Both the position numbers and the translations under genes were made by a program. This document shows, piece by piece, positions 17,025 to 53,563 of a stretch of DNA of 64,000 bases. The stretch is from an uncultured Rhodospirillales bacterium (GTDB taxonomy: Bacteria; Pseudomonadota; Alphaproteobacteria; Rhodospirillales; JAPHRK01), in assembly GCA_965368335.1 (NCBI GenBank), contig CBDUMN010000003.1:1586-65585 (forward strand), written 5' to 3'. How positions within the stretch are numbered: position 1 is the first letter of the stretch; every line of letters begins with the position of its first letter. The notes below the pieces were generated by a model, which was given only the letters and a program-made list of their open reading frames with translations, searched no databases and was not told where the DNA came from.

Positions 17025-17059
17025 AAAAGGGCGAAACAAATGAGGAGAAGCCTCGCATT

Positions 17060-18616
17060 ATGACTGATAAGGACAATTCTGGCGGCAACCCACTGCTAAA
17101 CAAGCTCAAAACTCTCGAAGAGTTAGGCGTCATTTCCGATAAGGCGCGCAAAGACGGCAAGACCGTGGTGCTCGCACATGGCACATTTGACCTCTTGCAT
17201 ATCGGACATCTTCGGCATTTGCGGCTCGCCAAACGCGAAGGCGATATCCTGATCGTTACCATCACTGCCGACGCTCATGTCAATAAAGGGCCCGGTCGGC
17301 CGGTTTTCGCCGAGCAGATGCGCGCCGAAATGCTAGCCGCCATCGAATGCATCGATTATGTCGGCATCAACGACGGCCCCAAGGCGCTAGAAGTTATTCA
17401 GGCGGTGAAACCCAGCAAATACGTCAAGGGCTCCGACTACAAGAATGCCCAAGACGATGTGACGGGCGGCATCGTCGAAGAACGAGCCGCCGTTGAAGAA
17501 CATGGCGGTGAGTTGGTGTTTACCGACGAAATAACCTTCAGTTCCTCTTCTCTGATCAACCGCCACCTGGCAGTCTTCGATCCGACTCTGGACGAGTATC
17601 TGGAAGCCCAACGTTCAAAAGGTATTCTCGATCAACTCACCGAACTGATCGATAAGGTCAAGAACTACCGTATCCTGATGATTGGCGACGCCATCATTGA
17701 CGATTACGTTTATGTTTCCGCTCTCGGCAAGTCGCCGAAAGAACATATGATCGCCACTCTATTCGAAGACCGGGAGGTTTTTGCAGGCGGCGTTTTCGCA
17801 GCGGCAAACCATGTGGCCGATTTTTGCAAAGAGGTGGAAATCGTCACCACCTTGGGCGAAGGCTGCGAATACGAAAAAATGATCCGAGGCGCGCTACGGC
17901 CCAACGTGACCTTAAATGCTTTTTACCGGGAAAATGCGCCAACCACCCGCAAGACCCGCTTCATCGACCGCTCATATCTGCGCAAGATGTTCGAGGTCTA
18001 CGATATGGATGACACCCCGACAGACGTAACGCTTGAACGTGTCATCGACCGGATGATTTTACAGCGCGCCAGCGATTTCGACATGGTGATCGTTACCGAC
18101 TTCGGCCACGGTCTGATGACGCCCACCATGATCGCTTCACTGGAGCGCACCGCCAAATTCTTAGCCGTCAATACCCAGTCCAACAGCGCCAACCTGGGCT
18201 TCAACCTGATCACCAAGTATCCGCGAACCGACTATATCTGCATTGACGCACCCGAAGCCCGACTGGCTACCGGAGATCGACGCAGCGACATCGAAGACAT
18301 CGCCTCAAGAGCCCTGCCGGAACGTATCAGTTGCCCGAAACTGATCGTTACCCACGGCAAGAACGGCTGCATCGGCTACGAACACAAGTCTCAGGTGGCC
18401 CATGTTCCGGCCTTCACCAAAACAGTGGTCGATACGGTGGGCGCGGGCGACGCCTTTTTCGCCGTCACAGCCCCTCTGGCGGCAGCGGGCGGCAAGGTGG
18501 ATCAATTGGCCTTTATCGGTAATGCCGCCGGAGCAATCAAGGTGGGTATCGTCGGACACCGGAATTCGGTCGAAAAGATATCCGTGCTAAAGTTCCTCAC
18601 CACCCTGCTCAAGTAG
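17060..18616 (+). CDS. bifunctional nucleotidyltransferase (N-terminal) / PfkB-family sugar kinase (C-terminal), a domain-inverted HldE-like enzyme
   Basis: The N-terminal cytidylyltransferase-like HxGH motif (GTFDLLHIGHLRHL) resembles HldE domain II. The C-terminal PfkB/ribokinase signature is DTVGAGDAFFA. ATG 17060 is used because the 16832 ORF start lies inside the previous gene. Confidence 0.8.
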   Translation: MTDKDNSGGNPLLNKLKTLEELGVISDKARKDGKTVVLAHGTFDLLHIGHLRHLRLAKREGDILIVTITADAHVNKGPGRPVFAEQMRAEMLAAIECIDYVGINDGPKALEVIQAVKPSKYVKGSDYKNAQDDVTGGIVEERAAVEEHGGELVFTDEITFSSSSLINRHLAVFDPTLDEYLEAQRSKGILDQLTELIDKVKNYRILMIGDAIIDDYVYVSALGKSPKEHMIATLFEDREVFAGGVFAAANHVADFCKEVEIVTTLGEGCEYEKMIRGALRPNVTLNAFYRENAPTTRKTRFIDRSYLRKMFEVYDMDDTPTDVTLERVIDRMILQRASDFDMVIVTDFGHGLMTPTMIASLERTAKFLAVNTQSNSANLGFNLITKYPRTDYICIDAPEARLATGDRRSDIEDIASRALPERISCPKLIVTHGKNGCIGYEHKSQVAHVPAFTKTVVDTVGAGDAFFAVTAPLAAAGGKVDQLAFIGNAAGAIKVGIVGHRNSVEKISVLKFLTTLLK

Positions 18617-18626
18617 GAGGGGCTGA

Positions 18627-19232
18627 ATGACCAACCAAATCTTCAATCAATATCTCAAAACCCTGGCAGCCTGCCTAAGGGATTCCGAAGCCAGTACGCA
18701 AGATGGCGCACCCATGGAGATGGGAGACGCCATGGATTGGATCACCAACACAGCTAAAGCCGCCCATGAGCGGGGAAACAAGATGATGTTCGTCGGCAAC
18801 GGCGGGTCGTCGTCCATTTCCAGCCATCTTTCAGTGGATTTCGCCAAGAACGGCGGCATGCGGGCGATGACCGTTACCGATGCACCGATGCTCACTTGCC
18901 TGGGAAACGACCTGGGCTACGAGAATGTCTACGCCAAACCGGTCGAAATGTACGGCACGGCGGGCGACATGCTGGTCGCTATTTCCAGTTCCGGCGGCTC
19001 AGCCAATATTTTGAACGCCGTCGCCAAGGCGCGCGATATCGGCGCAAGCGTTCTGACTTTAAGCGGGTTCAAACCGGACAACCCCCTGCGCAGGTCCGGC
19101 GATGTGAACCTTTATGTCCCCTCTTACGAATACGGCTTCGTTGAAACAGCCCATACGGCCCTGCTCCACGCAGCGCTCGATCTAAGCATGGGCTGGACCG
19201 AGGAAGACGGCCTTTGGGAAAGAAAACAATGA
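18627..19232 (+). CDS. gmhA: SIS-domain phosphoheptose isomerase (GmhA-like)
   Basis: FVGNGGSSSISSHLSVDF and LVAISSSGGSANILNAV motifs. The ~200-aa size is typical of sedoheptulose-7-phosphate isomerase. Confidence 0.8.
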   Translation: MTNQIFNQYLKTLAACLRDSEASTQDGAPMEMGDAMDWITNTAKAAHERGNKMMFVGNGGSSSISSHLSVDFAKNGGMRAMTVTDAPMLTCLGNDLGYENVYAKPVEMYGTAGDMLVAISSSGGSANILNAVAKARDIGASVLTLSGFKPDNPLRRSGDVNLYVPSYEYGFVETAHTALLHAALDLSMGWTEEDGLWERKQ

Positions 19233-20233
19233 GCAATAAAAAAATCTGGAACGTCATGGTAACCGGCGGCGCCGGTTATGTTGGCTCCTCCCTGGTCCCC
19301 AAGCTTTTGGAAGAAGGTCACGGGGTCACGGTCCTCGATCTCTATCTCTATGGCGACGATATCTTTGAGGATCACCGCGACAACCCAAGACTACGTGAGG
19401 TTAAGGGCGACCTACGTGACATCGCAACCGTACGCAACGCCTTGAAGGGCTGCGATGCTGTCATTCATCTGGCCTGTATCTCAAACGATCCCTCCTACGA
19501 CCTCAATCCAGACCTTGGCAAATCGATCAACTACGACGCTTTTAGGCCGCTGGTTCGCGCCTCCAAAGAAGCAGGCGTTAAACGTTTTATCTATGCCTCA
19601 TCCTCATCGGTTTATGGCATCAAGGACGAAGCCCAGGTTACCGAAGACCTGCCGCTGGAGCCTTTGACCGACTACTCCAAGTTCAAAGCTCTCTGCGAAG
19701 AAGAGCTGGAGGAAGAACGCGAACCGGGTTTCGCCACGCTGGTTATCCGTCCTTCGACCGTCTGCGGCTACGCTCCCCGCCTGAGGCTCGACCTGACGGT
19801 CAATATCCTGACCAACCACGCCATCAACAAAGGCAAAATCACCGTATTCGGAGGCGCCCAGAAACGCCCCAACATTCATATCGACGATATGGTCGGCCTT
19901 TATCTTTTCGTGTTGCAGCAAGACGACGAGAAGATTGACGGCAAAATCTTCAATGCGGGATATGAAAACTTCACCGTCATGGAAATCGCCGAGATGGTGC
20001 GTGACGCCCTTGGGGGCGACATCGGCATTGATGTGACGCCCACCGACGACAACCGCTCCTATCATGTTTCATCCGACAAGATGAAAAAGGAACTGGGGTT
20101 CATGCCGCAGCATACGATTCTCGATGCGGTCAAGGAGCTGAAAGCAGCCTTTGAGGCAGGCAAGGTGCCGAACTCCATGGATGACCCTATCTATTTCAAC
20201 ATCAAGCTCATGCAGGACGTTGACCTGAAGTAA
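19229..20233 (+). CDS. NAD-dependent epimerase/dehydratase (extended SDR)
   Basis: TGGAGYVGS Rossmann motif and YSKFK YxxxK. ATG 19229 overlaps the gmhA-like stop (ATGA). The TTG at 19214 is less likely. Confidence 0.85.
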   Translation: MSNKKIWNVMVTGGAGYVGSSLVPKLLEEGHGVTVLDLYLYGDDIFEDHRDNPRLREVKGDLRDIATVRNALKGCDAVIHLACISNDPSYDLNPDLGKSINYDAFRPLVRASKEAGVKRFIYASSSSVYGIKDEAQVTEDLPLEPLTDYSKFKALCEEELEEEREPGFATLVIRPSTVCGYAPRLRLDLTVNILTNHAINKGKITVFGGAQKRPNIHIDDMVGLYLFVLQQDDEKIDGKIFNAGYENFTVMEIAEMVRDALGGDIGIDVTPTDDNRSYHVSSDKMKKELGFMPQHTILDAVKELKAAFEAGKVPNSMDDPIYFNIKLMQDVDLK

Positions 20234-20234
20234 C

Positions 20235-20852
20235 ATGCGGATTGGCATCGACTTCGACAACACCATCGCAAGCTACGACGCAGCTTTCCTCGCCGCGGCC
20301 CGAAACCAGGGCTTGATCGAAGAAAGCTTCACCGGAGGAAAGGCCGCGGTGCGCGACGCGATGCGAAGCCTCCAAGACGGTGAACGGAAATGGCAGACCC
20401 TTCAGGGCCGCGTCTATGGCGCTTTCATGGAACAGGCGGCCCTGATCCCCGGCGTGGCCGAGTTTCTGACAAAATGCAATAGGGCCCTGCTGGATGTTTT
20501 TATCGTCAGCCATAAGACCGAGTTCGGTCATTTCGACCCGGAGAAAGTCAACCTGCGCGACGCAGCCATGGCCTGGATGCACAAGCAGGGTTTCTTCGAC
20601 CCAGACAGGTTCAATCTTTCACCGCTCAATATTTACTTCGAGAGCACCCGCGCCGAGAAGTTGGCCCGCATCGGGGCGCTGGAACTCGATCTGTTTATCG
20701 ACGATCTACCGGAAGTGCTATCCGATCCAGACTTCCCAGACGGTCCTCAAAAGGTGCTCTACGATCCCGATGACATTGGCGCTGAACTACCATACGACAG
20801 GATCGCCCATTGGAACGTCTTAACCCAGGGAGTGTTCGATGGCGCCGCGTGA
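20235..20852 (+). CDS. HAD-superfamily hydrolase (putative sugar phosphatase, GmhB-analogous role inferred)
   Basis: N-terminal HAD motif I (IGIDFDNTIA) and a late acidic motif (LFIDDL). The role is inferred only from pathway context. Confidence 0.5.
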   Translation: MRIGIDFDNTIASYDAAFLAAARNQGLIEESFTGGKAAVRDAMRSLQDGERKWQTLQGRVYGAFMEQAALIPGVAEFLTKCNRALLDVFIVSHKTEFGHFDPEKVNLRDAAMAWMHKQGFFDPDRFNLSPLNIYFESTRAEKLARIGALELDLFIDDLPEVLSDPDFPDGPQKVLYDPDDIGAELPYDRIAHWNVLTQGVFDGAA

Positions 20853-21858
20853 GTATTCCCATCATACGGTTCGCGAGATCGGCGAAACATTAAGCGGCGA
20901 AGTCCTGCTCGATGTGGTTCACACGCGTCCCGGCGGCAACAACCGGATTTTTCAGCTCATCGGTGACAATCAGTCGTTTGCCTTAAAATTCTATCCAGCC
21001 CAGGACGAAGACCCTCGCGACCGACTGGGCAACGAATATGTCTTCCTCGATTTCCTTAAAAACTGCGGCATCCAACATGTGCCGGAGCCAATCATCCGCG
21101 ACGACACCAATTCCTGCGCCCTGTATAGCTGGGTTGAAGGCGAGGCTGTCGGCGAAGCGACGGATAAAGACGTTGAAGCGCTGGCTTGGTTTCTCATCGG
21201 TCTACAGCCTTTGAAACGTAAGCCGGAGGCCACACGGATTAACCCAGCATCCGCCGCCTGCCCGGCTCCCGATGACGCCTTCAAGCAACTGCACCAACGG
21301 CTTGAGTGCTTGAAAGAGGCTGGAAGCGAGCACCCTAGTCTCCATGAATTCCTCGAAAATGATTTCAAGCCCAAGGCTGAAGAGGTGACCGAACAAGCCC
21401 GGACGGCACTACAAGCCAGTGGAATCAACCCGGAGCGGTCGATGGCAGCAGAAAAACTCGCCATCAGCCCGTCCGATTTCGGCTTTCATAACGCTCTTCG
21501 CAATGAAAACGGCGGTTTGAGTTTTGTCGACTTCGAGTATGCCGGGTGGGATGATCCGGTAAAAGCCGTTGCGGACGCCATGCTGCATCCCGGCAGTGGA
21601 ATGAGCGAGGCACAGGCCGAACATTTCCGGGCTAAGATGTTTCCGGTTTTTGCAATCGATCCCAAGTTTGAAGAACGATTTAACGCACTCTACCCGGTCT
21701 ATGCCCTGATCTGGTGCCTCATCATTCTCAATGAATTTTTACCCGAACGCTGGACCCGTCGCCGCCTCGCCGGACAAGAGGCCGATCTGGCAACGATCCA
21801 GGACAGACAACTTGAGAAGGCCGCAACTTTGCTGACAAGGATTGCCCATGCCGCTTAA
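20839..21858 (+). CDS. APH/choline-kinase-family phosphotransferase
   Basis: Brenner/APH motif region SPSDFGFHNALRNENGGLSFVDFEYAGWDDPVKAVAD. It overlaps the HAD gene by 14 nt. Confidence 0.65.
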   Translation: MAPREYSHHTVREIGETLSGEVLLDVVHTRPGGNNRIFQLIGDNQSFALKFYPAQDEDPRDRLGNEYVFLDFLKNCGIQHVPEPIIRDDTNSCALYSWVEGEAVGEATDKDVEALAWFLIGLQPLKRKPEATRINPASAACPAPDDAFKQLHQRLECLKEAGSEHPSLHEFLENDFKPKAEEVTEQARTALQASGINPERSMAAEKLAISPSDFGFHNALRNENGGLSFVDFEYAGWDDPVKAVADAMLHPGSGMSEAQAEHFRAKMFPVFAIDPKFEERFNALYPVYALIWCLIILNEFLPERWTRRRLAGQEADLATIQDRQLEKAATLLTRIAHAA

Positions 21859-22693
21859 CCCGCCTTCGGGGGCCGAGCCCTTAGCCATGCCGCTCGACGA
21901 ACGATCCAAACATCTTCGCCGCTTAGCGCTTGGCTCCATGCTCTCGGCTGGACGCGGCCACTTGGGTCCAGCCATGAGTCTGATCGAAATTCTGCGCGTC
22001 CTCTATGACGACATCCTCCGCTATAAACCAGACAATCCTAAATGGGCCGGGCGAGACCGCTGCATTCTTTCCAAAGGCCATGGCTGCTTGGCGCTCTATG
22101 CCATTCTGGCCGACAAAGGTTTCTTCCCGGAAAGCGAATTGGCCAAGTTTTGCGCTTTCGATGGGTTGCTGGGCGGCCATCCGGAAGTGCTCGCCCCCGG
22201 TGTCGAGGCCAGCACAGGCGCACTAGGACACGGACTTTCCATCGGCGTCGGCATGGCGTTGGCCAATCGGATGAAAAAGCGTGACGGCAAGGTGGTCGTC
22301 GTGATGGGCGATGGCGAAATCAACGAAGGGTCCTGCTGGGAAGCAGCCATGGCGGCAGCCAAGCACGGGCTCGGCAATCTGACCGCCATCATCGACCATA
22401 ACAAAATCCAGTCCTACGGTCCGGTCAATGGGGTCCAGCCTCTCGAACCCCTGGCCGATAAATGGAGGGCCTTCGGCTTCGCCGTCGAGGAAGTGAATGG
22501 TCACGATGTGGCGGCCCTGCAAGAAACTTTAAAACGGCTACCCTTCACTTCGGACCGTCCCAGTGCGCTGATTTGTCATACGGTCAAAGGCAAGGGCATT
22601 CCACCCGCCGAAAACAATCCCACCTGGCACCACAAAAACAAGCTAAAGGATGAGGAACTCGCCCCCATCCGCGAAGCGCTTGGAGAGGGCTGA
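21842..22693 (+). CDS. transketolase, N-terminal (ThDP-binding) subunit
   Basis: GHLGPAMSLIEILRVLY, KGHGCLALYAILA and MGDGEINEGSCWEAAMAAAKHGLGNL motifs of split transketolases. A possible later start lies at 21887. Confidence 0.9.
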   Translation: MPMPLNPPSGAEPLAMPLDERSKHLRRLALGSMLSAGRGHLGPAMSLIEILRVLYDDILRYKPDNPKWAGRDRCILSKGHGCLALYAILADKGFFPESELAKFCAFDGLLGGHPEVLAPGVEASTGALGHGLSIGVGMALANRMKKRDGKVVVVMGDGEINEGSCWEAAMAAAKHGLGNLTAIIDHNKIQSYGPVNGVQPLEPLADKWRAFGFAVEEVNGHDVAALQETLKRLPFTSDRPSALICHTVKGKGIPPAENNPTWHHKNKLKDEELAPIREALGEG

Positions 22694-22697
22694 GACA

Positions 22698-23624
22698 ATG
22701 CGGAAAACAGCGCTCAACATGGTTCACGAACTGGCCCGCCAGGACGAGCGGGTGGTCTATATCGGCTCGGACCCCGGCCCCGGAACGCTTGACGAAATGC
22801 GCGAGGAATTCCCCGACCGTTTCTTCATCGAAGGAATTGCCGAAGCCAACGTGATCGGCATGGCTGCCGGGCTGGCCATGGAAGGTTATGTTCCCTACGT
22901 CAATACCATCGCCACCTTCCTGACCCGGCGTTGTTACGAACAACTGGCTATCGACCTTTGCCTGCATAAGCTGCCCGTCCGGCTGATCGGCAACGGCGGT
23001 GGGCTGGTCTATGCTCCCTTGGGCCCGACCCATCAGGCCATTGAAGACATAGCGATCACCCGCGCTCTGCCGAACATGACAGTCATCGCCCCGGCCGATG
23101 CCGACGAAATGCGCCGCATGGTTCCCCAGACTCTCGATGTGGAAGGGCCGGTTTATATCCGCCTCGCCAAAGGACATGACGAGATCGTCACCCAGGAAGA
23201 CCATGGCAACACCCTGGGCAAGGCGATTATGCACAGAGAACCGGGCGACGCGCTGCTCGTTACCACGGGTATTATGCTCCAGCGGGGCTTGAAAGCGGCC
23301 GAACTGCTGGCCGAAGATAGTATCGAGTGTGGCCTGCTCCATTGCCACACCATCAAACCCTTGGATGTCGAAACCCTGGCCCATGCCGCCCGTCGCGCCA
23401 AGGTCGTCATCACGGCCGAGGAACATCTAGTCTCCGGCGGCCTGGGCGGCGCGGTTCTTGAGGCTCTTTCCGACGCCATGCCGGGCGCCATGCCACCGAT
23501 TATCCGCAAGGGCATTCCCGATAAATTCACCCATCACTATGGCTCCCAGGATCTCCTGCTGGAACACTACGGCCTGCAAGCCCCCGGATTGGCCCAAACC
23601 GTCAAAGACGCGCTGTCGAAATAG
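22698..23624 (+). CDS. transketolase, C-terminal (pyrimidine-binding) subunit
   Basis: FIEGIAEANVIGMAAGLAMEGYVPYVNTIATFL and GPTHQAIEDIAITRALPNMTVIAPAD. ATG 22698 lies 2 nt after the upstream stop. Confidence 0.9.
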   Translation: MRKTALNMVHELARQDERVVYIGSDPGPGTLDEMREEFPDRFFIEGIAEANVIGMAAGLAMEGYVPYVNTIATFLTRRCYEQLAIDLCLHKLPVRLIGNGGGLVYAPLGPTHQAIEDIAITRALPNMTVIAPADADEMRRMVPQTLDVEGPVYIRLAKGHDEIVTQEDHGNTLGKAIMHREPGDALLVTTGIMLQRGLKAAELLAEDSIECGLLHCHTIKPLDVETLAHAARRAKVVITAEEHLVSGGLGGAVLEALSDAMPGAMPPIIRKGIPDKFTHHYGSQDLLLEHYGLQAPGLAQTVKDALSK

Positions 23625-23635
23625 GAACCTGCCCA

Positions 23636-24745
23636 ATGGTCGATAACGTTCGATATTCATACCTGCCCCAACAGTTCGCCGAAATCGACGACCTGTGGGA
23701 AGAGTTGAAAGCCTTCGTCCCCACCGGAGATTTCACCTTGGGCAAGCCGCTCACCGAATTCGAACAGCGTTTCGCCAAGCTGATCGGCTCTAAACATGCC
23801 ATTGGGGTCAATTCAGGCACCGACGCCATCAAGTTGGGGCTGAAAGCGCTCGGCGTCGGCTTCGGCGACGAAGTGATCACCACCGCAAATACCTTCATCG
23901 CCACCGTCGGCGCTATCGCCGAAATCGGCGCAACGCCGGTATTCGTCGATTGCGACGACACCTTTTGCATGAATGTCGGTCAGGTGGAAAGCACCGTCAC
24001 CGAGAAAACCAAGGCCATCGTGCCGGTCCATTTCACCGGCTATATGACCGACATGCGCAAACTCATGCCCATTGCCGAAAAGCACGGCCTTCCCATCGTC
24101 GAAGACGCCTGTCAGGGCATCCTCGCCGCCATCGAGGGGAAAAACGCCGGCACCTGGGGCCATACCGGAGCCTTTTCCCTCCATCCGTTGAAGAACCTCA
24201 ACGTCTGGTCTGACGGCGGCATTATCATCACCGACGACGACGAGCTGGACCGCAAACTACGGCTATTGCGCAATCACGGCATGAGAAACCGGGATGAAAT
24301 CGAACTCCTGGGCTATAACTCCAGGCTCGATACCATCCAGGCGGTGGTCGGCAACTGGCTGATCCCCCAAACCGAAGACATCGCCGCCAAGCGTATCGCC
24401 AATGCGGCCTATTATGACGATGCCTTCGGCGCGCTTTCGCAAATCCGTATCCCGCCGCGTCCCACCGATATGCGGCTGGTCTATCACCTCTATATCGTTT
24501 TCGCCGAAGACCGGGACGGCCTGTTGGAGCATTGCCTCAAAAAAGATATCGAAGCCAAAATCCACTATCCCATTCCACTCTATCAGCAGGATGGTCTGAA
24601 GCATCTGGGCTACACCCCGGGAGACTTCCCGGTCACTGATCGCCACACTCAGGAAATCATCACCTTCCCGGTCGATCAGCATATTTCGAAAGAAGAGATG
24701 GACTACGTGATCGCCACGGTTAAAGAGTACTATGGAGGCTCGTGA
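23636..24745 (+). CDS. DegT/DnrJ/EryC1/StrS-family sugar aminotransferase
   Basis: The family pattern GVNSGTDAIKLGLKALGVGFGDEVITTANTFIATVGAI, the SLHPLKNL lysine region, and LRNHG are present. Confidence 0.9.
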   Translation: MVDNVRYSYLPQQFAEIDDLWEELKAFVPTGDFTLGKPLTEFEQRFAKLIGSKHAIGVNSGTDAIKLGLKALGVGFGDEVITTANTFIATVGAIAEIGATPVFVDCDDTFCMNVGQVESTVTEKTKAIVPVHFTGYMTDMRKLMPIAEKHGLPIVEDACQGILAAIEGKNAGTWGHTGAFSLHPLKNLNVWSDGGIIITDDDELDRKLRLLRNHGMRNRDEIELLGYNSRLDTIQAVVGNWLIPQTEDIAAKRIANAAYYDDAFGALSQIRIPPRPTDMRLVYHLYIVFAEDRDGLLEHCLKKDIEAKIHYPIPLYQQDGLKHLGYTPGDFPVTDRHTQEIITFPVDQHISKEEMDYVIATVKEYYGGS

Positions 24746-25853
24746 GGTGAGCAGCTTGAAAATCCCCTACGTCAATTTCAAGGCTCAGTATGAAGCCGAG
24801 AAAGACGATCTCGCCCGGATAACCGACGAGGTTTTCGCTTCCGGCTGGCTGATCGGCGGCGAGCAGGTAGAAAGGCTGGAGGCTGAGCTTGCCACCTATT
24901 GCGGGGTCGAGCATACCGTGGCGCTCAACTCCGGCACCGACGCATTGATCCTCGGCATGAAGGCCCTGGAAATTGGTCCCGGCGACGAGGTCATTACGCC
25001 GCCCAACTCTTTCGTCGCCTCGACCGCCGCCATCATCGCCGTCGGCGCAACGCCGGTTTTTGCCGATGTAGGCGACGGCATCAACATCGACCCAACCAAA
25101 ATTGAAGACGCCATGACGGCCAAAACCAAGGCGATCATGCCGGTCCACCTTTCGGGCCGCATCGCGGACATGGACGCCATCAACGCCATCGCTAAGCAGC
25201 ATGGCCTTTACATCATCGAAGACGCCGCCCAGTCGGTGGGATCAACCTACAAAGGCAAAAAAAGCGGCAGTCTCGGGACCCTCGGATGTTTTTCCGCCCA
25301 TCCCTTAAAAAACCTCAATGCGGCAGGCGACGCCGGTTTCCTGACCACCAACAACGCAGGCATCGCGGAACGTATCAAGCTCCTGCGCAACCATGGCCTT
25401 AAAGACCGCAATACGGTGGTCGAATGGGGCACGGTTTCGCGGCTCGACAGCCTCCAGGCGGCCATCCTGCGCTATCGGCTTGGCAACATTGAGGCCACAA
25501 TTCGAGCCCGCCGAAACAATGCCCAACGCTACCGTGAGAAATTAGGCGGCAAGGGTTTTGAGTTGCCGCTCGGCAAGGAGCATGAGTTCAATACCTTCCA
25601 TACCTTTATCATCCATGCCGAACGGCGCGATGAACTGCAGGCCTACCTGCTGGAGCAAGGCATTGAAACGGCGATCCACTACCCGATCCCCATTCACCTG
25701 CAACCGGCGGCCCGAAGCCTCCGCTATAAAGAGGGCGATTTCCCAGTCTGTGAAGCCCAGGCGAAACGTATCCTCTCCTTGCCCATCCACCAGTATCTCA
25801 GCTACCAAGAAATCGATTTGGTGGCTGAATTAGTAAACCGTTTTTACAAATAG
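24732..25853 (+). CDS. DegT/DnrJ/EryC1/StrS-family sugar aminotransferase (second copy)
   Basis: LNSGTDALILGMKALEIGPGDEVITPPNSFVASTAAI, SAHPLKNL and LRNHG. It overlaps the previous gene by 14 nt. Confidence 0.9.
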   Translation: MEAREVSSLKIPYVNFKAQYEAEKDDLARITDEVFASGWLIGGEQVERLEAELATYCGVEHTVALNSGTDALILGMKALEIGPGDEVITPPNSFVASTAAIIAVGATPVFADVGDGINIDPTKIEDAMTAKTKAIMPVHLSGRIADMDAINAIAKQHGLYIIEDAAQSVGSTYKGKKSGSLGTLGCFSAHPLKNLNAAGDAGFLTTNNAGIAERIKLLRNHGLKDRNTVVEWGTVSRLDSLQAAILRYRLGNIEATIRARRNNAQRYREKLGGKGFELPLGKEHEFNTFHTFIIHAERRDELQAYLLEQGIETAIHYPIPIHLQPAARSLRYKEGDFPVCEAQAKRILSLPIHQYLSYQEIDLVAELVNRFYK

Positions 25854-25861
25854 GCGAAACC

Positions 25862-26704
25862 ATGGCGAAAAGAGTTCTTTTGTTTGGCTACACCGGCAAA
25901 TTGGGCCGAGCGCTGCATAAAGCCCTGGCAGACGACTTCGAGGTTACCGGCAAAAACACTTCAGATTTCGACGCCATGGATTTTGCCAGCGCGGATAAGC
26001 TGATCGACGAGATTCAGCCGGAAATTATCATCAATCCAGTCGCTTATCTGGGTATCGACGCCTGTGAGCAAAACCCATACCCTGCCTCTGTCATCAATAC
26101 GCTGTTTCCGCAACATTTGGCGCGGCGTTGCTTGGAAACGGAAGCATCTCTCGTACAATTCTCCACCGAGTCGGTTTTTTCGGGAAAGTTGAAACGGCCA
26201 ATTAGCGAAGAGGATACGCCCGACCCTGCCAATAACTATGGTTTCACCAAGTACATGTCGGAAGTGACCGTCCGGGACACCCTGGAAACCCATTATATTT
26301 TCCGCCTGCCCGTTCTGTTTGGCGAAAACCCACGTCGCAATCAGTTTGTCGAAAAGATGCTCGACATGGGCAAAGAGCGTGGAAGCTTGCGCATTGCCGA
26401 CGATATTATTACCGCACCCACCTATGCCAAGGATGTTGCCGAACGCATCGCGATCATGCTCAAGGGAAAGCCCCCCTTCGGACTCTACCACCTCGCCAAC
26501 GCAGGTCAGGCCACACTTTACGAGATGATAAACGAAACCGTCGCCAATCTGGGCCTCGACATTGAGATCAAGCGGGCGTCGCTCAATGACTTCCCGAGCA
26601 TTGGCAACAAAAACACCATTACGCCCTTAAAAACCATCAAGACCACCCCTCTGCGTCCTTGGCGGGAAGCCTTGGCTGAGTATTGTGCAGAACACGAAAA
26701 ATGA
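25862..26704 (+). CDS. RmlD-like (dTDP-4-dehydrorhamnose reductase family) sugar-nucleotide reductase
   Basis: 280 aa with FGYTGKLG nucleotide-binding start and YGFTK YxxxK, giving an RmlD substrate-binding-domain-like layout. Confidence 0.7.
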   Translation: MAKRVLLFGYTGKLGRALHKALADDFEVTGKNTSDFDAMDFASADKLIDEIQPEIIINPVAYLGIDACEQNPYPASVINTLFPQHLARRCLETEASLVQFSTESVFSGKLKRPISEEDTPDPANNYGFTKYMSEVTVRDTLETHYIFRLPVLFGENPRRNQFVEKMLDMGKERGSLRIADDIITAPTYAKDVAERIAIMLKGKPPFGLYHLANAGQATLYEMINETVANLGLDIEIKRASLNDFPSIGNKNTITPLKTIKTTPLRPWREALAEYCAEHEK

Positions 26705-26862
26705 ATATGAGAATCATTCACAAAACAATCGCTTTTTAAGCTTTTCTTGAGGGTTTTTGTGCCCATATAGAAGGCTGCGGTTTTTATCGGCACAAGCACA
26801 GCGCCGACAAGGAATAGGGCCTGGACAGAATATCCCGGCCATACGTGACCAGGAGTAACAGA

Positions 26863-28230
26863 ATGTCTCACATCACGACGGAACAGGTCCGCGACGCTCT
26901 CAAATCAATCACCGATCCGGATAGCGGGGCCGATATCGTCAGCCGCGGTATGATTTCGGAAATCGCCATTCACGGTCGCAAAGTCAGCTTTGCAATTATG
27001 GTCAATGGTGAGGGCGGCGAACGGATGGAACCAATCCGCAAGGCTGCCGAAGACATTGTTTCAAAAATTTCAGGTGTCGCTCAGGCCCATGTGGCCCTGA
27101 CCGCCGAACGCGCACCAACCATGCCCAACGCGGACGCGCGTAAACTCGACAAATACAAAATGGACGGCAACAAGATGCTCTGGCATATGGAGCGCGTCCA
27201 AGCCTGGAAAAACGGTGAGCGCATTGCTCCGCTACACATCGACGTCGGACTTTCAAAGGGTTGCAACATCCGCTGCCAATACTGTTATGGCGTGACCCAG
27301 GGCAATTTTTTCCGCAAAGGCTCAGAGCGCGTTTTCCCACGCGACGCACTGCTCCAGTACATGCAGGATTGCGGCGACCTCGGCGTGCGCTCTATCGCAT
27401 TGATCGGCGAAGCGGAACCCACGCTAAACCCGGCCGTTTACGAGGCCATCGCCACCGGCAAGAAAGCTGGGGTCGACATGTCGATGGGCACCAACGGCGT
27501 TTTGTTCGACACAACCAAGGTCGGTGAAGAAGCCCTGGAACATCTTACTTGGCTGCGCTTTAATATTTCCGCCGGGTCCGACTACGCCTACCGGCGCGTC
27601 CATGCTTCCAAAGAATTCAATACGGTGGTCGAAAAAATCCGCTTCACCGTCGAGACCAAGCGGAAACTCAACCTCGACACCACCGTCGGCCTACAGATGG
27701 TCCTCACCCCTCAAAATGTCGATCAGGCCGTTCCACTCGCCCAACTCGGCGCCGAGTTGGAAGTGGACTATCTGGTCATCAAGCAGTGCTCGGACACTCA
27801 GGAAGGTGACATCGGGGTCTATGACCAACTCGAGGTTTATCACGACTTCAGCGAAACCCTGCACCAAGCCGAAACCTTTTCCAATGACCACTACAACGTG
27901 ATCGTCAAATGGGACAAGATCACCAACGAAGGGCATCGAGAATACGACAACTGTCTCGGCACGCCTTTCCTGCTCTATTCCTCCGGCGACGGCAAGCTCT
28001 ACCCCTGCGGTCAGTGGTTTGGTTACCGCGAAGAAGAATTCCGCTTGGCCGACTTAACCCAGACGACCTTTAAGGAAGCCATCGAAAGCGATGCCTACTG
28101 GGACATCATCAAAAAGCAGGCCTGTCATGTGGACGTGCATAAAGAGTGCTACTCCAACTGCCGCACCCACTCGATCAACGATTTCCTGTGGAACTTCAGC
28201 CACCCACCGGCACATGTGAATTTCGTTTAA
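26863..28230 (+). CDS. DUF59/MIP18-like domain fused to a radical SAM enzyme
   Basis: AGGAG lies 7 nt upstream of ATG 26863. The N-terminal ~85 aa resemble the Mrp/ApbC N-terminal DUF59 (VRDALKSITDPDSGADIVSRGMISEIAIHGRKVSFAI). The radical SAM CxxxCxxC motif is GCNIRCQYCYG (Cys codons at 27262, 27274 and 27283). Confidence 0.75.
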   Translation: MSHITTEQVRDALKSITDPDSGADIVSRGMISEIAIHGRKVSFAIMVNGEGGERMEPIRKAAEDIVSKISGVAQAHVALTAERAPTMPNADARKLDKYKMDGNKMLWHMERVQAWKNGERIAPLHIDVGLSKGCNIRCQYCYGVTQGNFFRKGSERVFPRDALLQYMQDCGDLGVRSIALIGEAEPTLNPAVYEAIATGKKAGVDMSMGTNGVLFDTTKVGEEALEHLTWLRFNISAGSDYAYRRVHASKEFNTVVEKIRFTVETKRKLNLDTTVGLQMVLTPQNVDQAVPLAQLGAELEVDYLVIKQCSDTQEGDIGVYDQLEVYHDFSETLHQAETFSNDHYNVIVKWDKITNEGHREYDNCLGTPFLLYSSGDGKLYPCGQWFGYREEEFRLADLTQTTFKEAIESDAYWDIIKKQACHVDVHKECYSNCRTHSINDFLWNFSHPPAHVNFV

Positions 28231-28258: not shown

Positions 28259-30040
28259 ATGGAAATTCAACAAAAACTCCAGAACGGCCTGATGCTCCAC
28301 CGTAGCGGCGACAAGAAAGCTGCTGAAACGGCGTACCTCGATGTGATTTCTCAAGACCCTCTTCAGGTCGATGCGCTCCATCTACTTGCAGTATTGCGTC
28401 TTGAAGAAGGGCGGCAAGAAGATGCCCTAGAAAATATCGACAAGGCCCTACAAGTGGACCCGGAGTATCCTGCCGCACGGCTCAATCGGGCGAACATTCT
28501 CATGGCGCTTCATCGTCCTCACGAGGCCATAAGAGAGCTGCAGGAACTGAGCATCGCCAAACCGGATTTATTGGAAGTTTATATTAATCTGGGGAATGCC
28601 TTACTTTCCGTCAAAAAGTTTAACGCCGCCCTTATTGAGTTTGACAAGGCGCTCAAGGTTAACCCCAATCATCCAAATGCACGTATGGGATATGGGCTCG
28701 CCCAAGAAGGGCTGGAACACTATGCCGAAGCCGCCGAGGCGTTTAGGGGTGTCCTCAAACAAATACCCAATGAACCAACCGTGTTGGCGCGATTGGCAAG
28801 CGTCAACGGAGAAATGAGCAACCTAAACGAGGCCTTGCAGTATGCTCTTTCAGCCCTGGCCTTTAACACTAAATCGGCAGAAAATTATTATAACGTCGTT
28901 ATCTATGCTGGTGCGTTGGCCGAAAAAGGCGACCCAGCCGGACATCAAGCCCTTCAAAGCCTAGAGAACATCACCAAACCCGAAAGCCCCTTAACCAAGG
29001 CGGCTGAAAAACTCATGGTTTTCTATCAAGGACGGAAATCCCCTCAGGTAAAAATAATCAAGGCGTTAGGCGAAACATTTTCTGAGGAACAGCCAACCAC
29101 GCTTACGATTGAACAAGCCGAAGTGGTGAATGATCAATGGTACGTTATTAAGGATGATGTTCTTTACATAGACCCCCACGCTCATATCCGAGAAACGGAG
29201 CAGCAACCAACCGTGACCCTGCATCCTGGGGGAAAAGCGGTTTTATCCGAAGCCCCCCCTAAGCGCAGAAGCATTGATGAGCCGGTATTCCTCATGGGGG
29301 GATGTGGGAATTACTATCACTGGATTATCGATCATCTGCCAAATCTTATGGCGCTCGAGCAAGCGAATTTATCCAAACAACCACTTATTCTTCTTCATCA
29401 CGACCCATCACCAAATCAGCTGGAAGCTCTTACTTTGTTGGGTATCGACAAAGAAAGACTATGCTTCTTCTCCGACGCGGAAATTTTAGAATGCAGCCAA
29501 CTGTTGCTGCCTTATCTACCCGACAGGCGTCCCAACAAATGGGATGAAAAAAACTGGTGGTGGCAAACGACCGCAACACCCAAGGTTAGCGCATGGCTCA
29601 AAGAACGTTTTGCGCCAACACCAAAGACGGATGCCGCTGAAAAAATTTTTATAAGCCGGAGTACGGCAAAAACACGCCGTGTCGTTAACGAAGCGGAAAT
29701 AGCCAACTTAGCAAAAGCCGCGGGCTACAGGATTGTTGAGCCCGGCATGATGAGCTTTAAAGAACAAGTCTCCATTTTTTCCGCCGCTAAGAAAATTGTA
29801 GCCCCGCATGGTGCAGGATTAACAAACATGGTCTTTGCCCCCGATGGCGTTGAAGTAGTTGAGTTCGTCGGTGAGATTGCTCCTCCTGAATTCTTTGAGG
29901 CGTTGGCAAAAACAAAGAATGCCGCTTATCAGAGAGTAACCTGCAGGCTCAGCGATGGCTTTTCGTCATATCGAAAGCGAGACAACCGGTTCAATGACTT
30001 CATCATTGATCCTGAGGAAGCAAGAAGCGTTTTCACGTAG
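28259..30040 (+). CDS. TPR-repeat protein fused to a GT61/DUF563-type glycosyltransferase
   Basis: The N-terminal ~230 aa are TPR-like (AETAYLDVISQDPLQVDALHLLAVL...). The C-terminal half has GT61/DUF563 hallmarks GNYYHWIIDHLPNL and FISRSTAKTRRVVNEAEI...QVSIFSAAKKIVAPHGAGLTNMVF. Confidence 0.7.
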   Translation: MEIQQKLQNGLMLHRSGDKKAAETAYLDVISQDPLQVDALHLLAVLRLEEGRQEDALENIDKALQVDPEYPAARLNRANILMALHRPHEAIRELQELSIAKPDLLEVYINLGNALLSVKKFNAALIEFDKALKVNPNHPNARMGYGLAQEGLEHYAEAAEAFRGVLKQIPNEPTVLARLASVNGEMSNLNEALQYALSALAFNTKSAENYYNVVIYAGALAEKGDPAGHQALQSLENITKPESPLTKAAEKLMVFYQGRKSPQVKIIKALGETFSEEQPTTLTIEQAEVVNDQWYVIKDDVLYIDPHAHIRETEQQPTVTLHPGGKAVLSEAPPKRRSIDEPVFLMGGCGNYYHWIIDHLPNLMALEQANLSKQPLILLHHDPSPNQLEALTLLGIDKERLCFFSDAEILECSQLLLPYLPDRRPNKWDEKNWWWQTTATPKVSAWLKERFAPTPKTDAAEKIFISRSTAKTRRVVNEAEIANLAKAAGYRIVEPGMMSFKEQVSIFSAAKKIVAPHGAGLTNMVFAPDGVEVVEFVGEIAPPEFFEALAKTKNAAYQRVTCRLSDGFSSYRKRDNRFNDFIIDPEEARSVFT

Positions 30041-30087
30041 TCATGCTGGTTGCCCGGCAAGACACTTTATTAAGTAAGGAGAGCTCT

Positions 30088-31467
30088 ATGCCTCATTTGC
30101 TATCGGCCCCAACAACGGTGAATTTAGAACTCACGGAAATCTGCAATGTCAAATGCGATCATTGCTACAACTATTGGCGCGACGAAAGCATGGGCGAAAT
30201 CTCGCTTGATGGCGAAAGACTAGAGCGTGTCATTGACAACTTGGCGAAGGCTGGGGTTTTCCATGTCATCCTGAGCGGCGGGGAGCCAATGGCGAAATTC
30301 CCCTTGTTGCTGCAAGCCGTTGAGCGGTTGAATAGCCACGGGATGTCATTAAGCGTCAATAGCAATGTCATGCTGCTCACGCCGGAAAGAGCTTCCCAGC
30401 TTGTTGAAAGGGGCGTTGACCATATCCTGACCAGTTTGCCGTCACTCGATCCGGCGACCAATGATCGAATTATGAATAAAGTTGGAGCTTTCGAGAAAAT
30501 CGTAACAGGCATTACAAATGCGGTAGACGCAGGCATCCGCATCAGCGTCAACATGGTCATTACGAAGAAGAACTATCAAGACGTCTACAAAACCGCGAAA
30601 TTCGTAGCCAATCTAGGCGCACAACGTATTTTCATCACCCGTTCAGTGCCCCCGATATATACGGAAACAGTGTCCGACGACGAATACGACATGACGCCAG
30701 AGGAAGTTCGCTCGGCGCTCGACAGCGCCATCCAGGCGCGTGACGAGTTCGGCATCATGATCGGAACCCTGGTCAGCTACCCGCTTTGTTTCCTGAGCGA
30801 TTTAGAAAAATACAAAGACTTTGTCGGACGCGGTTGCCCGGCACAGCGCGGCGATCGGATGAGCATTAACGCCAATGGTGCGGTTCACGCCTGCGTCCAT
30901 GAAGAAGATGGTTACGGCAATATTCTGGAAAATGATATACGCGACATTTACCAAAACAGCATGCGCAAATGGCACGGAGGAAACCTCCACTACGATGGCT
31001 GCGAAGGGTGCGAATATATCGATGTTTGCGAATCTGGTTGTCGCATGAATGCACTGGGCCGCGAAGGCGCAATGAATCTTAAAGACCCACTGTATCAAGG
31101 ACCTACTCACTTCAAGCGCCATTTCAAGTTCGACCAAAACGACGACTCCATTACGCTGATCGAAGAGAATCAGGCATTCACGGTCCCTTCCCGGCTCAGA
31201 TTCCGGAAAGAAAACGATTTTTACTTGGTGAATATTCGATGGGGCAATTCGATCACCCTTGATAATGAAACGACCGAATTCCTGATAGCCCATCAGGAAA
31301 GCGGTGAAGCATTTACGCTAAATGACCTCGGAGAAACCAAAGCTAAGATTTTGCGCAATCTGTATTTCAAGGATGTCATTGAAACCAAGGACAGCCAGCC
31401 AACAGATAGCAACAAGGCGTTTCTCGGCCTCAGCCTTAATCCAGATGCACTAAAAACAGGGACCTAG
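30088..31467 (+). CDS. radical SAM / SPASM-domain enzyme
   Basis: AAGGAGAG RBS before ATG 30088. The CxxxCxxC motif is ICNVKCDHCYN. The C-terminal Cys-rich SPASM-like region is GCPAQRGDRMSINANGAVHACVHE...CEGCEYIDVCESGCRMN. Confidence 0.8.
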   Translation: MPHLLSAPTTVNLELTEICNVKCDHCYNYWRDESMGEISLDGERLERVIDNLAKAGVFHVILSGGEPMAKFPLLLQAVERLNSHGMSLSVNSNVMLLTPERASQLVERGVDHILTSLPSLDPATNDRIMNKVGAFEKIVTGITNAVDAGIRISVNMVITKKNYQDVYKTAKFVANLGAQRIFITRSVPPIYTETVSDDEYDMTPEEVRSALDSAIQARDEFGIMIGTLVSYPLCFLSDLEKYKDFVGRGCPAQRGDRMSINANGAVHACVHEEDGYGNILENDIRDIYQNSMRKWHGGNLHYDGCEGCEYIDVCESGCRMNALGREGAMNLKDPLYQGPTHFKRHFKFDQNDDSITLIEENQAFTVPSRLRFRKENDFYLVNIRWGNSITLDNETTEFLIAHQESGEAFTLNDLGETKAKILRNLYFKDVIETKDSQPTDSNKAFLGLSLNPDALKTGT

Positions 31468-35661: not shown

Positions 35662-37905
35662 TTAGAACCACTTTTCGAGCCGATTAAGCGCTATGGCGAA
35701 CCCTTCGCCACCGTTTTTATGTCCCTGCCAAATTTCGGGAATAAACGAAGCCGAGGAACAACACTTCTTCACCTGCTTTGCCAAGTGCTCAAAATCAATA
35801 TCTCCATCCCCGATCTGTAGTCCTTCATCATCGACCCCGCGAGCATCGACAAGATGCAAATGTTTTGAGTAAGGCCCTACGGTTTCAATAAATGAAGCAA
35901 ACGACCAGCCAAACTTTGTACAGGCCAATTTAGAATGAGAGGTATCCAAACAAATATTCGTTTCATATGTTTTGCAGAACCACTCGATTTCATCTGGGTC
36001 CATGAATAAGTTGTGGTAACGCTGCCCCCCCATTAACCAAGGAAACGGTGGCATGGTCTGAGGTAAAAGCTCGACCCCTTCGCTATCAACTCGCAAAAAC
36101 CCTTCTGCGACGCGCTCGTACATCTTGCGCCTGTCTGATTCAGGGATAAAACTCTTCTCTGAAAAGCCCCCAACATTGACAATAATGAACGGACGGTCGG
36201 CACGTTTAAAATAGGGCTTCAACGTCCGGGCCACATCGACAACATTTTGCAATTCACGAATGCCTCGCTCCCAAATTGCATTGTCGTCAGAGGCTAGATC
36301 GAGCAAATAATCACGAGCGAAAACCTCCGGGGAATGAACTACTAAATCCATATCCAGAGGCCCGTCCATATAACTTTCGACGGATATATCCATATCCTTG
36401 AAGCTCAGATGGAACTCCAACAAATCTGGTGCGATTTTCTCGAGAAACTGTTTGTAGTCATGGCATCGGACAGGCACGCCCCATGGATGCCTGAACTTAT
36501 AATCATGAAAAACGTTTTGTTCGCCAATGACATCTGCTTCAAAAAAGAAATCTCCAGCCTTGATATCCCGCGTCGCCAAGCTGCCGACCAACTCACTTCG
36601 CCGGTTGGGCTGGATACCGCGCCCCGGGTTCTTGATATCAATAATATCATCGGTGATGACATCACCCTTCGAAACATCACGAGTAGCAACGAGGCTTTTG
36701 GCGAGGATTTCGCGGTTCATCATTTCGCCCTGGCTTAAAACGCGGACAGGCTCACCAATGGAATCTTCAGTCTGCCGAATGGCCTCAACCATCTCCCGAA
36801 ACTCATCAGGCAATAAACTAATTCGATGGTCGTTGCCTTCTAGGGACCGGTCGACCGTAAAATGCTTCTCAACAATTTTTGCCCCTAGCGCAACCGCCGA
36901 AACAGCCACATGAATACCGCGTTCGTGTCCTGAATATCCCACCGGGCATTCACCGATTTCTTTCAAACGTTTTAGGTATGAAAGGTTGATGTCCTTGAAT
37001 GGTGGCGGGTATGCGGAATTGCAATGAAGCAAGGCAAACTGAGCCCCCTGCCTTTGCAGAAGTTTCACGGCATCCTTGATTTCCTGCTCATTCGACATGC
37101 CGGTCGAGACGATCATTGGTTTTTTAGTAGCGGCGACCGCCGCCAAGAGCTCATGGTTTGTCAGATCTGCGGATGCAATTTTATATGCTTGAACCCCCAT
37201 GCCCTCTAAAGCTTGCAAACTTTCCAAATCCCAGGGCGTACAAAGCGGGATAGCCCCACAACGACGGACATAATTCAGCGCCTCAGCCATTTCCTCGTTG
37301 GAAAGCTGGAACCGTGACAACAGGTCAAGCACATATTGCGACCCCAAATCTTCACTTGGGTCATTCGCAGCATCGGCATTGCGATAGAGGCTATCCATAT
37401 GGCGGAGCTGAAATTTAACGCAATCAGCTCCCGCATCGACGGCAAGGTCGATCAGTTCCTTCGCACGTTTCAAGCTGCCATTATGGTTGTTGCCGATTTC
37501 AGCAATAATAAATGCCTTGGAATCATCGGAAATCTCACGCCCTTCAATATTCATGAAGGATGCTTCATCAAAAGCAATCGCGACGAAATGCCCCATTTCA
37601 TTGACCAGGGGGACAAAGTGGATTTTGCTATCTAGTAGATTTCTAATGACCTCGGGGTCCTCATCAACCCCAGCCACAGTGATTTCCTTGGTCATTAAAT
37701 CTGCGACAGAGCGGTTGATATCAACCTGGTCTTCATTCACCACCCAACGCCTAAAATCGCCGTCGGTAAAAACCCCTTCGATGGTCCCTCTCTCCGTTAC
37801 GGCGCAAACAAAACCCTTCTTGTTCTGGCTCATCTTGATGAGAGCTTCCAAAACCGTTGCATGAGCAAGCAACACGAAAGATTCGACATTTGATTGGATA
37901 ATCAT
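35662..37905 (-). CDS. four-module fusion: CBS pair, NeuB-type nonulosonate synthase, SAF domain and xylose-isomerase-like TIM barrel
   Basis: Residues 1-~115 are CBS-like (GFVCAVTERGTIEGVFTDGDFRRWV). From ~130 comes the NeuB signature AFIIAEIGNNHNGSLKRAKELIDLAVDAGADCVKFQ. The SAF domain is LVATRDVSKGDVITDDIIDIKNPGRGI. The last ~280 aa are sugar-phosphate isomerase/epimerase (AP-endonuclease-2 TIM)-like (HLHLVDARGVDDEGLQIGDGDIDFEHLA). Confidence 0.85.
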   Translation of the reverse strand: MIIQSNVESFVLLAHATVLEALIKMSQNKKGFVCAVTERGTIEGVFTDGDFRRWVVNEDQVDINRSVADLMTKEITVAGVDEDPEVIRNLLDSKIHFVPLVNEMGHFVAIAFDEASFMNIEGREISDDSKAFIIAEIGNNHNGSLKRAKELIDLAVDAGADCVKFQLRHMDSLYRNADAANDPSEDLGSQYVLDLLSRFQLSNEEMAEALNYVRRCGAIPLCTPWDLESLQALEGMGVQAYKIASADLTNHELLAAVAATKKPMIVSTGMSNEQEIKDAVKLLQRQGAQFALLHCNSAYPPPFKDINLSYLKRLKEIGECPVGYSGHERGIHVAVSAVALGAKIVEKHFTVDRSLEGNDHRISLLPDEFREMVEAIRQTEDSIGEPVRVLSQGEMMNREILAKSLVATRDVSKGDVITDDIIDIKNPGRGIQPNRRSELVGSLATRDIKAGDFFFEADVIGEQNVFHDYKFRHPWGVPVRCHDYKQFLEKIAPDLLEFHLSFKDMDISVESYMDGPLDMDLVVHSPEVFARDYLLDLASDDNAIWERGIRELQNVVDVARTLKPYFKRADRPFIIVNVGGFSEKSFIPESDRRKMYERVAEGFLRVDSEGVELLPQTMPPFPWLMGGQRYHNLFMDPDEIEWFCKTYETNICLDTSHSKLACTKFGWSFASFIETVGPYSKHLHLVDARGVDDEGLQIGDGDIDFEHLAKQVKKCCSSASFIPEIWQGHKNGGEGFAIALNRLEKWF

Positions 37906-42956: not shown

Positions 42957-43181
42957 AGGATTCTCCTCATTAGCCAGTTTCAAGGCTATCGACCGACCGT
43001 CAGTCATCCTTCTGGATATGAACCAGCCTTGAATCTTATGTTCCGGTATATGGTAAACCTAAAAATAGATATCAAGGCGGCGACAACGGAGTTGGCCGAT
43101 AGCTAGCGCCTGGCGGCCACCGCCGATCCAGACAAGCACAGAGTAGCTTAGCGACTCATTCTTGAGAGAATCTTAAAAGGC

Positions 43182-53552: not shown

Positions 53553-53563
53553 TCATCCAACAA

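Follow-up and report, generated by a model that had tools for sequence, protein, structure and literature searches.

Proteins carrying a DUF59 domain are found in all three domains of life and include SufT, PaaD, CIA2/MIP18, HCF101 and Mrp. SufT and other DUF59 proteins help iron-sulfur (Fe-S) proteins to mature when demand is high, and the molecular role of the domain is still undefined (PMC4982691, PMC8593673). A conserved hyper-reactive cysteine has been reported in every SufT homolog, and the DUF59 architectures catalogued in 2016 include fusions to a P-loop NTPase, a U-type scaffold, Rieske, PaaJ, DUF1858, CysE and PqqD, and none to a radical S-adenosylmethionine (SAM) enzyme (PMC4982691). 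Here, we describe such a fusion in an uncultured Rhodospirillales bacterium (GenBank assembly GCA_965368335.1, contig CBDUMN010000003.1, positions 1,586 to 65,585). The gene occupies positions 26863-28230 on the forward strand of this 64,000-nucleotide stretch, referred to below as the window. Its product is tentatively read as a nucleotide-sugar radical SAM enzyme, in which the DUF59 domain would act in cis as an adaptor that connects the protein to the machinery of Fe-S delivery.

Our literature searches retrieved no description of a DUF59-radical SAM fusion and no characterized homolog. This is in line with the 2016 architecture catalogue (PMC4982691) and with a first-pass annotation, made from the letters of the window without database searches, which knew of no characterized radical SAM enzyme with a DUF59 domain. 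The automatic annotation at JGI names both COGs for some members, so the architecture is visible in databases but unstudied. Specialists in radical SAM enzymes will not be surprised by it, because accessory domains are common in this superfamily.

The protein consists of three parts, namely a DUF59 domain, a variable linker and a radical SAM core with a C-terminal twitch-like domain:

26863-28230, forward strand: complete gene, 455 amino acids plus stop codon (open reading frame list, Pfam domains, full-length homologs 63-95% identical).
26851-26855, forward strand: Shine-Dalgarno-like AGGAG, 7 nucleotides before the ATG, read from the sequence.
26863-27108, forward strand: DUF59/FeS_assembly_P domain, residues 1-82 (PF01883, Mrp/ApbC N-domain type, no cysteine).
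27109-27147, forward strand: linker between the two domains, residues 83-95 (length and sequence vary, with the lowest predicted local distance difference test score, pLDDT, of 64-79).
27148-27894, forward strand: radical SAM core, approximately residues 96-344 (PF04055, homolog alignment, partial TIM barrel).
27262-27285, forward strand: CX3CX2C motif (CNIRCQYC; C134, C138 and C141), the predicted site of the SAM-cleaving [4Fe-4S] cluster.
27895-28227, forward strand: C-terminal twitch-like (partial SPASM) domain (invariant cysteine columns, fold matches to SPASM and twitch enzymes).

The first-pass annotation had assigned the N-terminus to DUF59 of the Mrp/ApbC N-domain type and had named a profile search of this segment as a possible refutation. 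The search was positive for PF01883 (formerly DUF59): positions 2-73 of the 73-position profile aligned to residues 7-77 with 54.3 bits, the gathering threshold being 23.5 (E = 1.7e-14). TM0487 (1uwd) was also matched in a profile search (E = 6.6e-8). A word-indexed homolog search with the 94-residue DUF59 segment alone gave two candidates, neither of them significant, and an exhaustive phmmer search was used instead. With residues 1-94 as query against 1.84 billion representative sequences, it returned 727 matches, the best being about 50% identical. Among the top 150, 35 continue into the Mrp/ApbC P-loop SGKGGVGKS, and most of the others are short or frameshifted fragments of Mrp/ApbC genes. 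The Mrp/ApbC assignment was thus borne out as well.

The fold agrees with this assignment. An AlphaFold2 model built from 85 sequences (pLDDT 92.8, predicted template modeling score 0.82) contains a compact, separate α/β N-domain followed by a lower-confidence linker and then the barrel. The N-domain has pLDDT values of 84-98 and the secondary structure elements H6-13, E31-37, E40-47, H56-67 and E74-81. The α/β fold of TM0487 and TT1362 is recovered in the AlphaFold2 model, the profile search and Foldseek, in which the N-domain of an earlier model matched ApbC (8zkc) and TT1362 (3cq1/3cq2, TMt 0.64-0.69).

The window DUF59 contains no cysteine, and the conserved cysteine of the SufT type is absent, with the TM0487 cysteine aligning to a glycine. 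A cysteine at any position is present in only one of the 15 fused domains and in 16 of the 147 closest Mrp-like N-domains. The protein is not itself a carrier of the Mrp/ApbC/NBP35 type, as there is no GKGGVGKS-type P-loop in the protein or in the whole window. Likewise, no suf or isc genes occur near the gene in the window or in related loci, all of which are glycan or flagellar clusters. In a neighbor-joining tree (without support values) that also held the 147 Mrp-like N-domains, all 15 fused domains group in a single clade, which suggests a single capture event. The source was probably the N-domain of an Mrp/ApbC carrier of alphaproteobacterial origin, and the capture probably took place in an ancestor within the Alphaproteobacteria.

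The DUF59 part is kept by strong purifying selection. The closest relative of the window gene (L090) shares 95% amino-acid identity with it, and synonymous sites are near saturation (synonymous divergence, dS, 1.14). At this distance, the DUF59 codons show a nonsynonymous divergence (dN) of 0.064 and a dN/dS of 0.056, and the core codons a dN/dS of 0.023. Being under purifying selection, the DUF59 segment is therefore translated, and the downstream start codon, which the first reading had named as a way in which the fusion could prove unreal, was not borne out. The reading frame runs through 26863-28230 with no stop codon between the two parts, as had been claimed. The window protein and its homologs share the start residues 'MSH...'; no internal Met lies at the core boundary, and a start at M100 would drop the invariant D96. 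The exact protein is present on five contigs across NCBI, JGI and ENA, its cluster at 90% identity has nine members, and the same architecture recurs in 15 clusters (63-95% identity) from many independent assemblies. The GC content is uniform, at 54% in the DUF59 part and 54% in the radical SAM part. The linker varies from 0 to 25 residues in the alignment of fused homologs and is unconstrained in distant pairs. A promoter and terminator scan around the gene gave nothing above shuffle expectation.

The catalytic part belongs to the radical SAM superfamily, having both the CX3CX2C motif and a PF04055 match above the gathering threshold (residues 131-273, E = 1.8e-11, 44.9 bits against 29.5), so that the earlier claim of an in-frame fusion to a full radical SAM core (CNIRCQYC) holds. 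C134, C138 and C141 do not vary across 85 sequences drawn from the two subfamilies. The same sequences share four further invariant cysteines (C364, C382, C429 and C433), and C309, upstream in the core, is conserved in at least 90% of them. The arrangement C364-x12-G-x4-C382 ... C429-x3-C433 is a truncated SPASM motif. A full SPASM domain is defined by CX9-15GX4C...CX2CX5CX3C...C together with a score above the gathering threshold of its hidden Markov model (HMM); the window protein lacks the complete seven-cysteine motif and reaches 16.1 bits against 21.5 with PF13186 (residues 376-433), unlike paralogs that exceed the threshold. The C-terminal domain fits the twitch type with one auxiliary cluster. 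PDB sequence searches with the core returned remote matches only (CteB, anSME and BlsE, E ~1e-3) and no close solved homolog. With moderate confidence, we take the protein for a radical SAM enzyme that acts on a nucleotide sugar and holds two [4Fe-4S] clusters.

The catalytic core represents a widespread, highly conserved and uncharacterized family of roughly 2,300 members. A large protein collection contained 1,715 relatives, most of them about 360 residues long and starting at window residue 96 (D-K-Y-x-M-D-G). These unfused relatives are 60-66% identical to the window core despite coming from very different phyla. In a set of one genome per species (185,579 species), which provided the survey of the fusion that the first-pass annotation had called for, we found 79 loci. 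With a six-frame HMM scan, DUF59 was detected at five of these loci, each time in the reading frame of the radical SAM core. All five are alphaproteobacterial: one Rhodospirillales metagenome-assembled genome (MAG), two unclassified MAGs and two Pelagibacteraceae single-cell genomes. The scan revealed no stand-alone DUF59 gene beside the unfused members of the 79 loci, and therefore there is no 'split' version of the protein. Apparent tblastn matches to residues 1-95 in four loci (L024, L026, L055 and L086) were rejected, since they correspond to the upstream RmlD-like gene in another frame, as confirmed with the HMM. Most of the unfused members belong to Brocadiales, Geobacter, Desulfobacterota, Omnitrophota, Thermodesulfovibrionales and Acetivibrio, lineages which we take to be anaerobes.

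The Pelagibacteraceae (SAR11) carry a paralogous subfamily of about 478 residues (P0271-P0323, the single-cell genomes L079/L080, and L094), whose core is about 37% identical to the window protein. It comprises about 50 clusters at 90% identity, one of them with 118 members. The AT-rich N-terminal parts hold a highly diverged DUF59 domain in the same position, mostly missed by Pfam: PF01883 matched 5 of 26 subfamily members (best E = 8.5e-8, 32.8 bits). With just two Pelagibacteraceae N-termini, hhalign gave a probability of 32%; a 26-sequence profile then resolved the match, reaching 96.8% probability against the window-type DUF59 (E = 2.5e-10) and 97.4% against Mrp N-domains. The window-type and SAR11 proteins may go back to one old fusion or to two separate ones. 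The SAR11 subfamily retains the extra N-domain even in streamlined genomes, which seldom keep dispensable domains, and SAR11 is among the most abundant bacterial lineages of the ocean.

Other N-terminal additions were seen among the relatives. Three loci from Methylococcaceae, Gammaproteobacteria and Omnitrophota MAGs (L057, L065 and L075), which represent another subfamily of the radical SAM family, share a different conserved extension without a Pfam match, with the approximate motif H-x-x-G-H-x-[LI]-R-[TS]-G-x-x-V-V-D-R-S ('GHxLRxGxxVVDRS'). Several close unfused relatives (P0016-P0020, P0013 and P0031-like) have low-complexity extensions of 15-50 residues that are not DUF59; these may be left over from a lost domain or reflect start codons that were called wrongly.

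The gene context is that of sugar-nucleotide biosynthesis. As the first reading had placed it, the gene lies between a heptose-type module and transferase genes, with a TPR-GT61 gene directly downstream:

16014-25853, forward strand: upstream sugar-nucleotide cassette (Pfam; the same cassette in L001, L006, L010, L090 and L094).
25862-26704, forward strand: RmlD-like NAD(P)H sugar reductase (PF04321, E = 1.5e-59).
28259-30040, forward strand: TPR and GT61 glycosyltransferase (PF04577 and TPR families).

The upstream cassette encodes an epimerase, an HldE-like kinase/nucleotidyltransferase, a SIS/GmhA-like protein, a second epimerase, a 205-residue open reading frame with no Pfam match, an APH-family kinase, a split transketolase and two DegT aminotransferases. 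The recurrent cassette, which the DegT genes join in the window, also takes in the RmlD-like and radical SAM genes (16014-28230); its conservation extends from Alphaproteobacteria to marine metagenome (Tara) contigs and, partly, to Acetivibrio. In most of the loci that were examined, the RmlD-like gene lies beside the radical SAM gene (L001, L003, L005, L006, L010 and L094); three genes separate the two in L090-L092, and L009 and L093 have no RmlD-like gene near the radical SAM gene. In addition, P0117 is an RmlD-radical SAM fusion, and in P0377 the radical SAM protein is fused to transketolase C-domains. The product of the cassette is probably a higher-sugar nucleotide for flagellin or surface glycans.

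In the window, a flagellar region (FlgE, FlgI and FlgK) precedes a large island for flagellin glycosylation. The island contains NeuB, a CMP-transferase, Maf and TPR-GT41/GT61 genes, as well as two radical SAM genes besides the fused one. Related fused loci likewise adjoin flagellar genes. In SAR11, which is non-motile, the cassette lies in a surface-glycan region, with the radical SAM gene beside the split transketolase and the RmlD-like gene. The two other radical SAM proteins of the island have no DUF59: one is a 474-residue protein of the SPASM type (30043-31467, forward strand) and the other a 522-residue protein of the B12-binding type (41439-43007, reverse strand). The island also encodes an unusual four-part fusion of 746 residues (35662-37905, reverse strand), which combines CBS, NeuB (nonulosonic acid synthase), SAF and a xylose-isomerase-like TIM barrel (AP_endonuc_2). 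A gene for a histidine kinase (13730-15826, reverse strand) separates the flagellar genes from the glycan island; its product has PAS, HisKA and HATPase domains as well as a C-terminal hemerythrin domain, and may sense oxygen or iron. Positions 50358-59490 on the reverse strand hold a run of large putative flagellin glycosyltransferases:

50358-52280, reverse strand: TPR-GT41.
53564-55546, reverse strand: Maf-type.
55521-57515, reverse strand: open reading frame of similar size.
57556-59490, reverse strand: putative glycosyltransferase with a weak GT41 match.

In the reading that we favor, the radical SAM part would modify a nucleotide-activated higher sugar, probably heptose-derived, together with the neighboring RmlD-like reductase, and the product would be destined for flagellin in the window organism and for a surface glycan in SAR11. 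The likeliest chemistry would be radical hydrogen abstraction from a sugar C-H, giving a keto or deoxy-keto intermediate, which the RmlD-like enzyme would reduce, with net epimerization or deoxygenation as the result. The cysteine-less DUF59 domain would probably hold no cluster; instead, it may serve to dock the enzyme, when apo or damaged, onto the Fe-S assembly or carrier machinery of the cell, with Mrp/ApbC, SUF or proteins of the Nfu type as partners, and in this way aid the loading or repair of the two oxygen-labile clusters of the enzyme. The absence of cysteine makes an adaptor likelier than a cluster-binding site. An adaptor best explains a domain that comes from an Fe-S carrier, lacks cysteine, is flexibly tethered and is strongly conserved; the part that DUF59 proteins play in Fe-S maturation (PMC4982691, PMC8593673) and the pattern of distribution point the same way.

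Several observations weigh against this proposal. Both the substrate and the reaction are read from gene context only, and all 53 matches to NCBIfam radical SAM equivalogs (MoaA, NirJ, PqqE etc.) fall far below the cutoffs, the best being TIGR04317 (tungsten-cofactor maturase; 60.5 bits against 380). Without the reactive cysteine of the SufT homologs, the mode of action may differ from that of SufT and CIA2. The two radical SAM genes without DUF59 (30043 and 41439) reside in the same island. In a neighbor-joining tree of the cores (without support values) the fused sequences fall into two groups, with unfused ones nested among them. Finally, Azospirillum B506, Magnetovibrio, Phaeospirillum and Roseospirillum, all Alphaproteobacteria with a (micro)aerobic or phototrophic way of life, also have unfused versions, and the link to oxygen is therefore loose.

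The main rival explanation is that DUF59 is a structural, docking or oligomerization domain unrelated to Fe-S delivery, which we consider rather unlikely. It might make the enzyme a dimer, link it to the RmlD-like reductase or to some other enzyme of the pathway, or assist in binding the nucleotide-sugar substrate. Such a role would suit a domain devoid of the cysteine that is thought to be central to SufT and CIA2 function, and stand-alone DUF59 proteins crystallize as dimers. Furthermore, the family includes other N-terminal additions, such as RmlD (P0117), the 40-50-residue extensions of P0016-P0020 and the 'GHxLRxGxxVVDRS' extension (L057/L065/L075), so that the N-terminus looks like a general site for accessory modules. 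However, all other settings in which DUF59 is known have to do with Fe-S (PMC4982691, PMC8593673), the donor of the domain is an Fe-S carrier, and the host enzyme, with two predicted clusters, is itself an Fe-S client. Moreover, the unfused enzymes pair with the same RmlD-like partner without any DUF59.

A regulatory or sensing module for Fe-S, iron or oxygen status, acting for example by competition for Mrp partners, appears quite improbable. The restriction of the fusion to Alphaproteobacteria, including aerobic SAR11, and the flexible tether would be compatible with it, as would, circumstantially, the hemerythrin-containing histidine kinase that borders the island, but DUF59 has no precedent as a sensor and shows no identifiable ligand-binding residues. 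The idea that the N-terminal segment is non-functional is essentially refuted: most members of the radical SAM family lack DUF59, and the unfused P0013 and P0014 nest among fused sequences in the core tree, which suggests that DUF59 loss is possible, but a wrong start call, a relic undergoing decay and an assembly chimera are each ruled out by the low dN/dS at near-saturated dS, the independent recurrence in 15 clusters and many assemblies, the variability of the linker and the equal GC content, in addition to the conserved 'MSH' start with its preceding AGGAG and the loss of D96 from an M100 start.

A stronger form of the adaptor proposal, in our view doubtful, is that DUF59 is a self-contained client-targeting tag for Fe-S insertion or repair. 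Some Alphaproteobacteria, SAR11 among them, would have attached a copy of the Mrp N-domain to an oxygen-sensitive radical SAM enzyme with two clusters, which the carrier machinery would then treat as a partner. If true, it would provide the first direct function for the cysteine-less DUF59 of the Mrp/ApbC type, that of recruitment rather than cluster binding, and a portable tag to stabilize radical SAM enzymes in oxic hosts. A natural fusion of DUF59 to an evident Fe-S client with two predicted [4Fe-4S] sites offers a simple test system for the role of the domain, for which the close unfused relatives are built-in controls of cluster loading, oxygen tolerance and partner binding. The catalytic family and its recurrent cassette are also a worthwhile target for sugar enzymology.

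Among known systems, the nearest sequence relative of the window DUF59 is the N-domain of Mrp/ApbC (and plant HCF101), with about 41-55% identity, the same length and the same α/β fold. The closest Mrp-type N-domains are also mostly without cysteine. In Mrp/ApbC, this domain precedes a P-loop ATPase with a bridging CXXC cluster site, whereas in the window protein it precedes a radical SAM enzyme. SufT, PaaD and CIA2 (MIP18, FAM96B) share with it the membership of PF01883, the similarity to TM0487 and the link to Fe-S proteins. In contrast to them, the window DUF59 has no hyper-reactive cysteine, is encoded outside a suf operon and is covalently joined to its presumed client. Earlier links of DUF59 to the radical SAM world are the DUF59-PqqD architecture (S8, PMC4982691) and the fusion of a RiPP recognition element (RRE) with DUF59 (mSystems 2025, PMC12710340). 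PqqD and RRE domains partner with radical SAM maturases (PMC4982691, PMC12710340), so that in these cases DUF59 sits on the peptide-recognition partner in pathways for peptides that are made by the ribosome and modified after translation (RiPPs) or pyrroloquinoline quinone, and in the window it sits on the radical SAM enzyme itself in a sugar pathway.

For the catalytic part, the fold search ranked DesII first, followed by SkfB, SuiB, anSME, CteB, BlsE, MoaA, PqqE and viperin, with BtrN in 40th place. DesII, a TDP-4-amino-4,6-dideoxy-D-glucose deaminase, is a nucleotide-sugar radical SAM enzyme. The match (8hzv) had E = 3e-14, a template modeling score of about 0.53 and 14-16% identity. Both enzymes belong to deoxy- or amino-sugar pathways and have an extra N-terminal domain of about 100 residues. 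The likeness is at the fold level only, the score against the DesII equivalog TIGR04426 being 27.2 bits against a cutoff of 450. The N-domain of DesII was rejected as a DUF59 candidate since it consists of six α-helices, and DesII has a single cluster (PMC11434129), whereas the window family has four further invariant cysteines.

These cysteines connect the enzyme to the twitch/SPASM group (BtrN, MoaA, anSME, SkfB, SuiB and PqqE), with which it shares a C-terminal cysteine-rich domain and fold matches. Its CX12GX4C corresponds to the first half of the SPASM motif. A twitch domain is a shortened form of the SPASM domain in which three or four cysteines ligate one auxiliary [4Fe-4S] cluster, and the four invariant cysteines of the window enzyme agree with one auxiliary cluster that is fully ligated, like that of BtrN (PMC9012708). 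BtrN oxidizes a secondary alcohol of a carbocyclic, sugar-like substrate. Unlike the window enzyme, none of the six carries DUF59; the window enzyme, for its part, lacks the full seven-cysteine motif and has no evident peptide substrate or RRE. In the BtrN pathway, an aminotransferase acts next. A sequential logic of two enzymes like the one proposed for the window is followed by AprD4/AprD3, a radical SAM diol dehydratase and an NAD(P)H reductase that act in turn in sugar deoxygenation. The RmlD-like and radical SAM genes, which are usually adjacent and occasionally fused into one, are in keeping with this logic.

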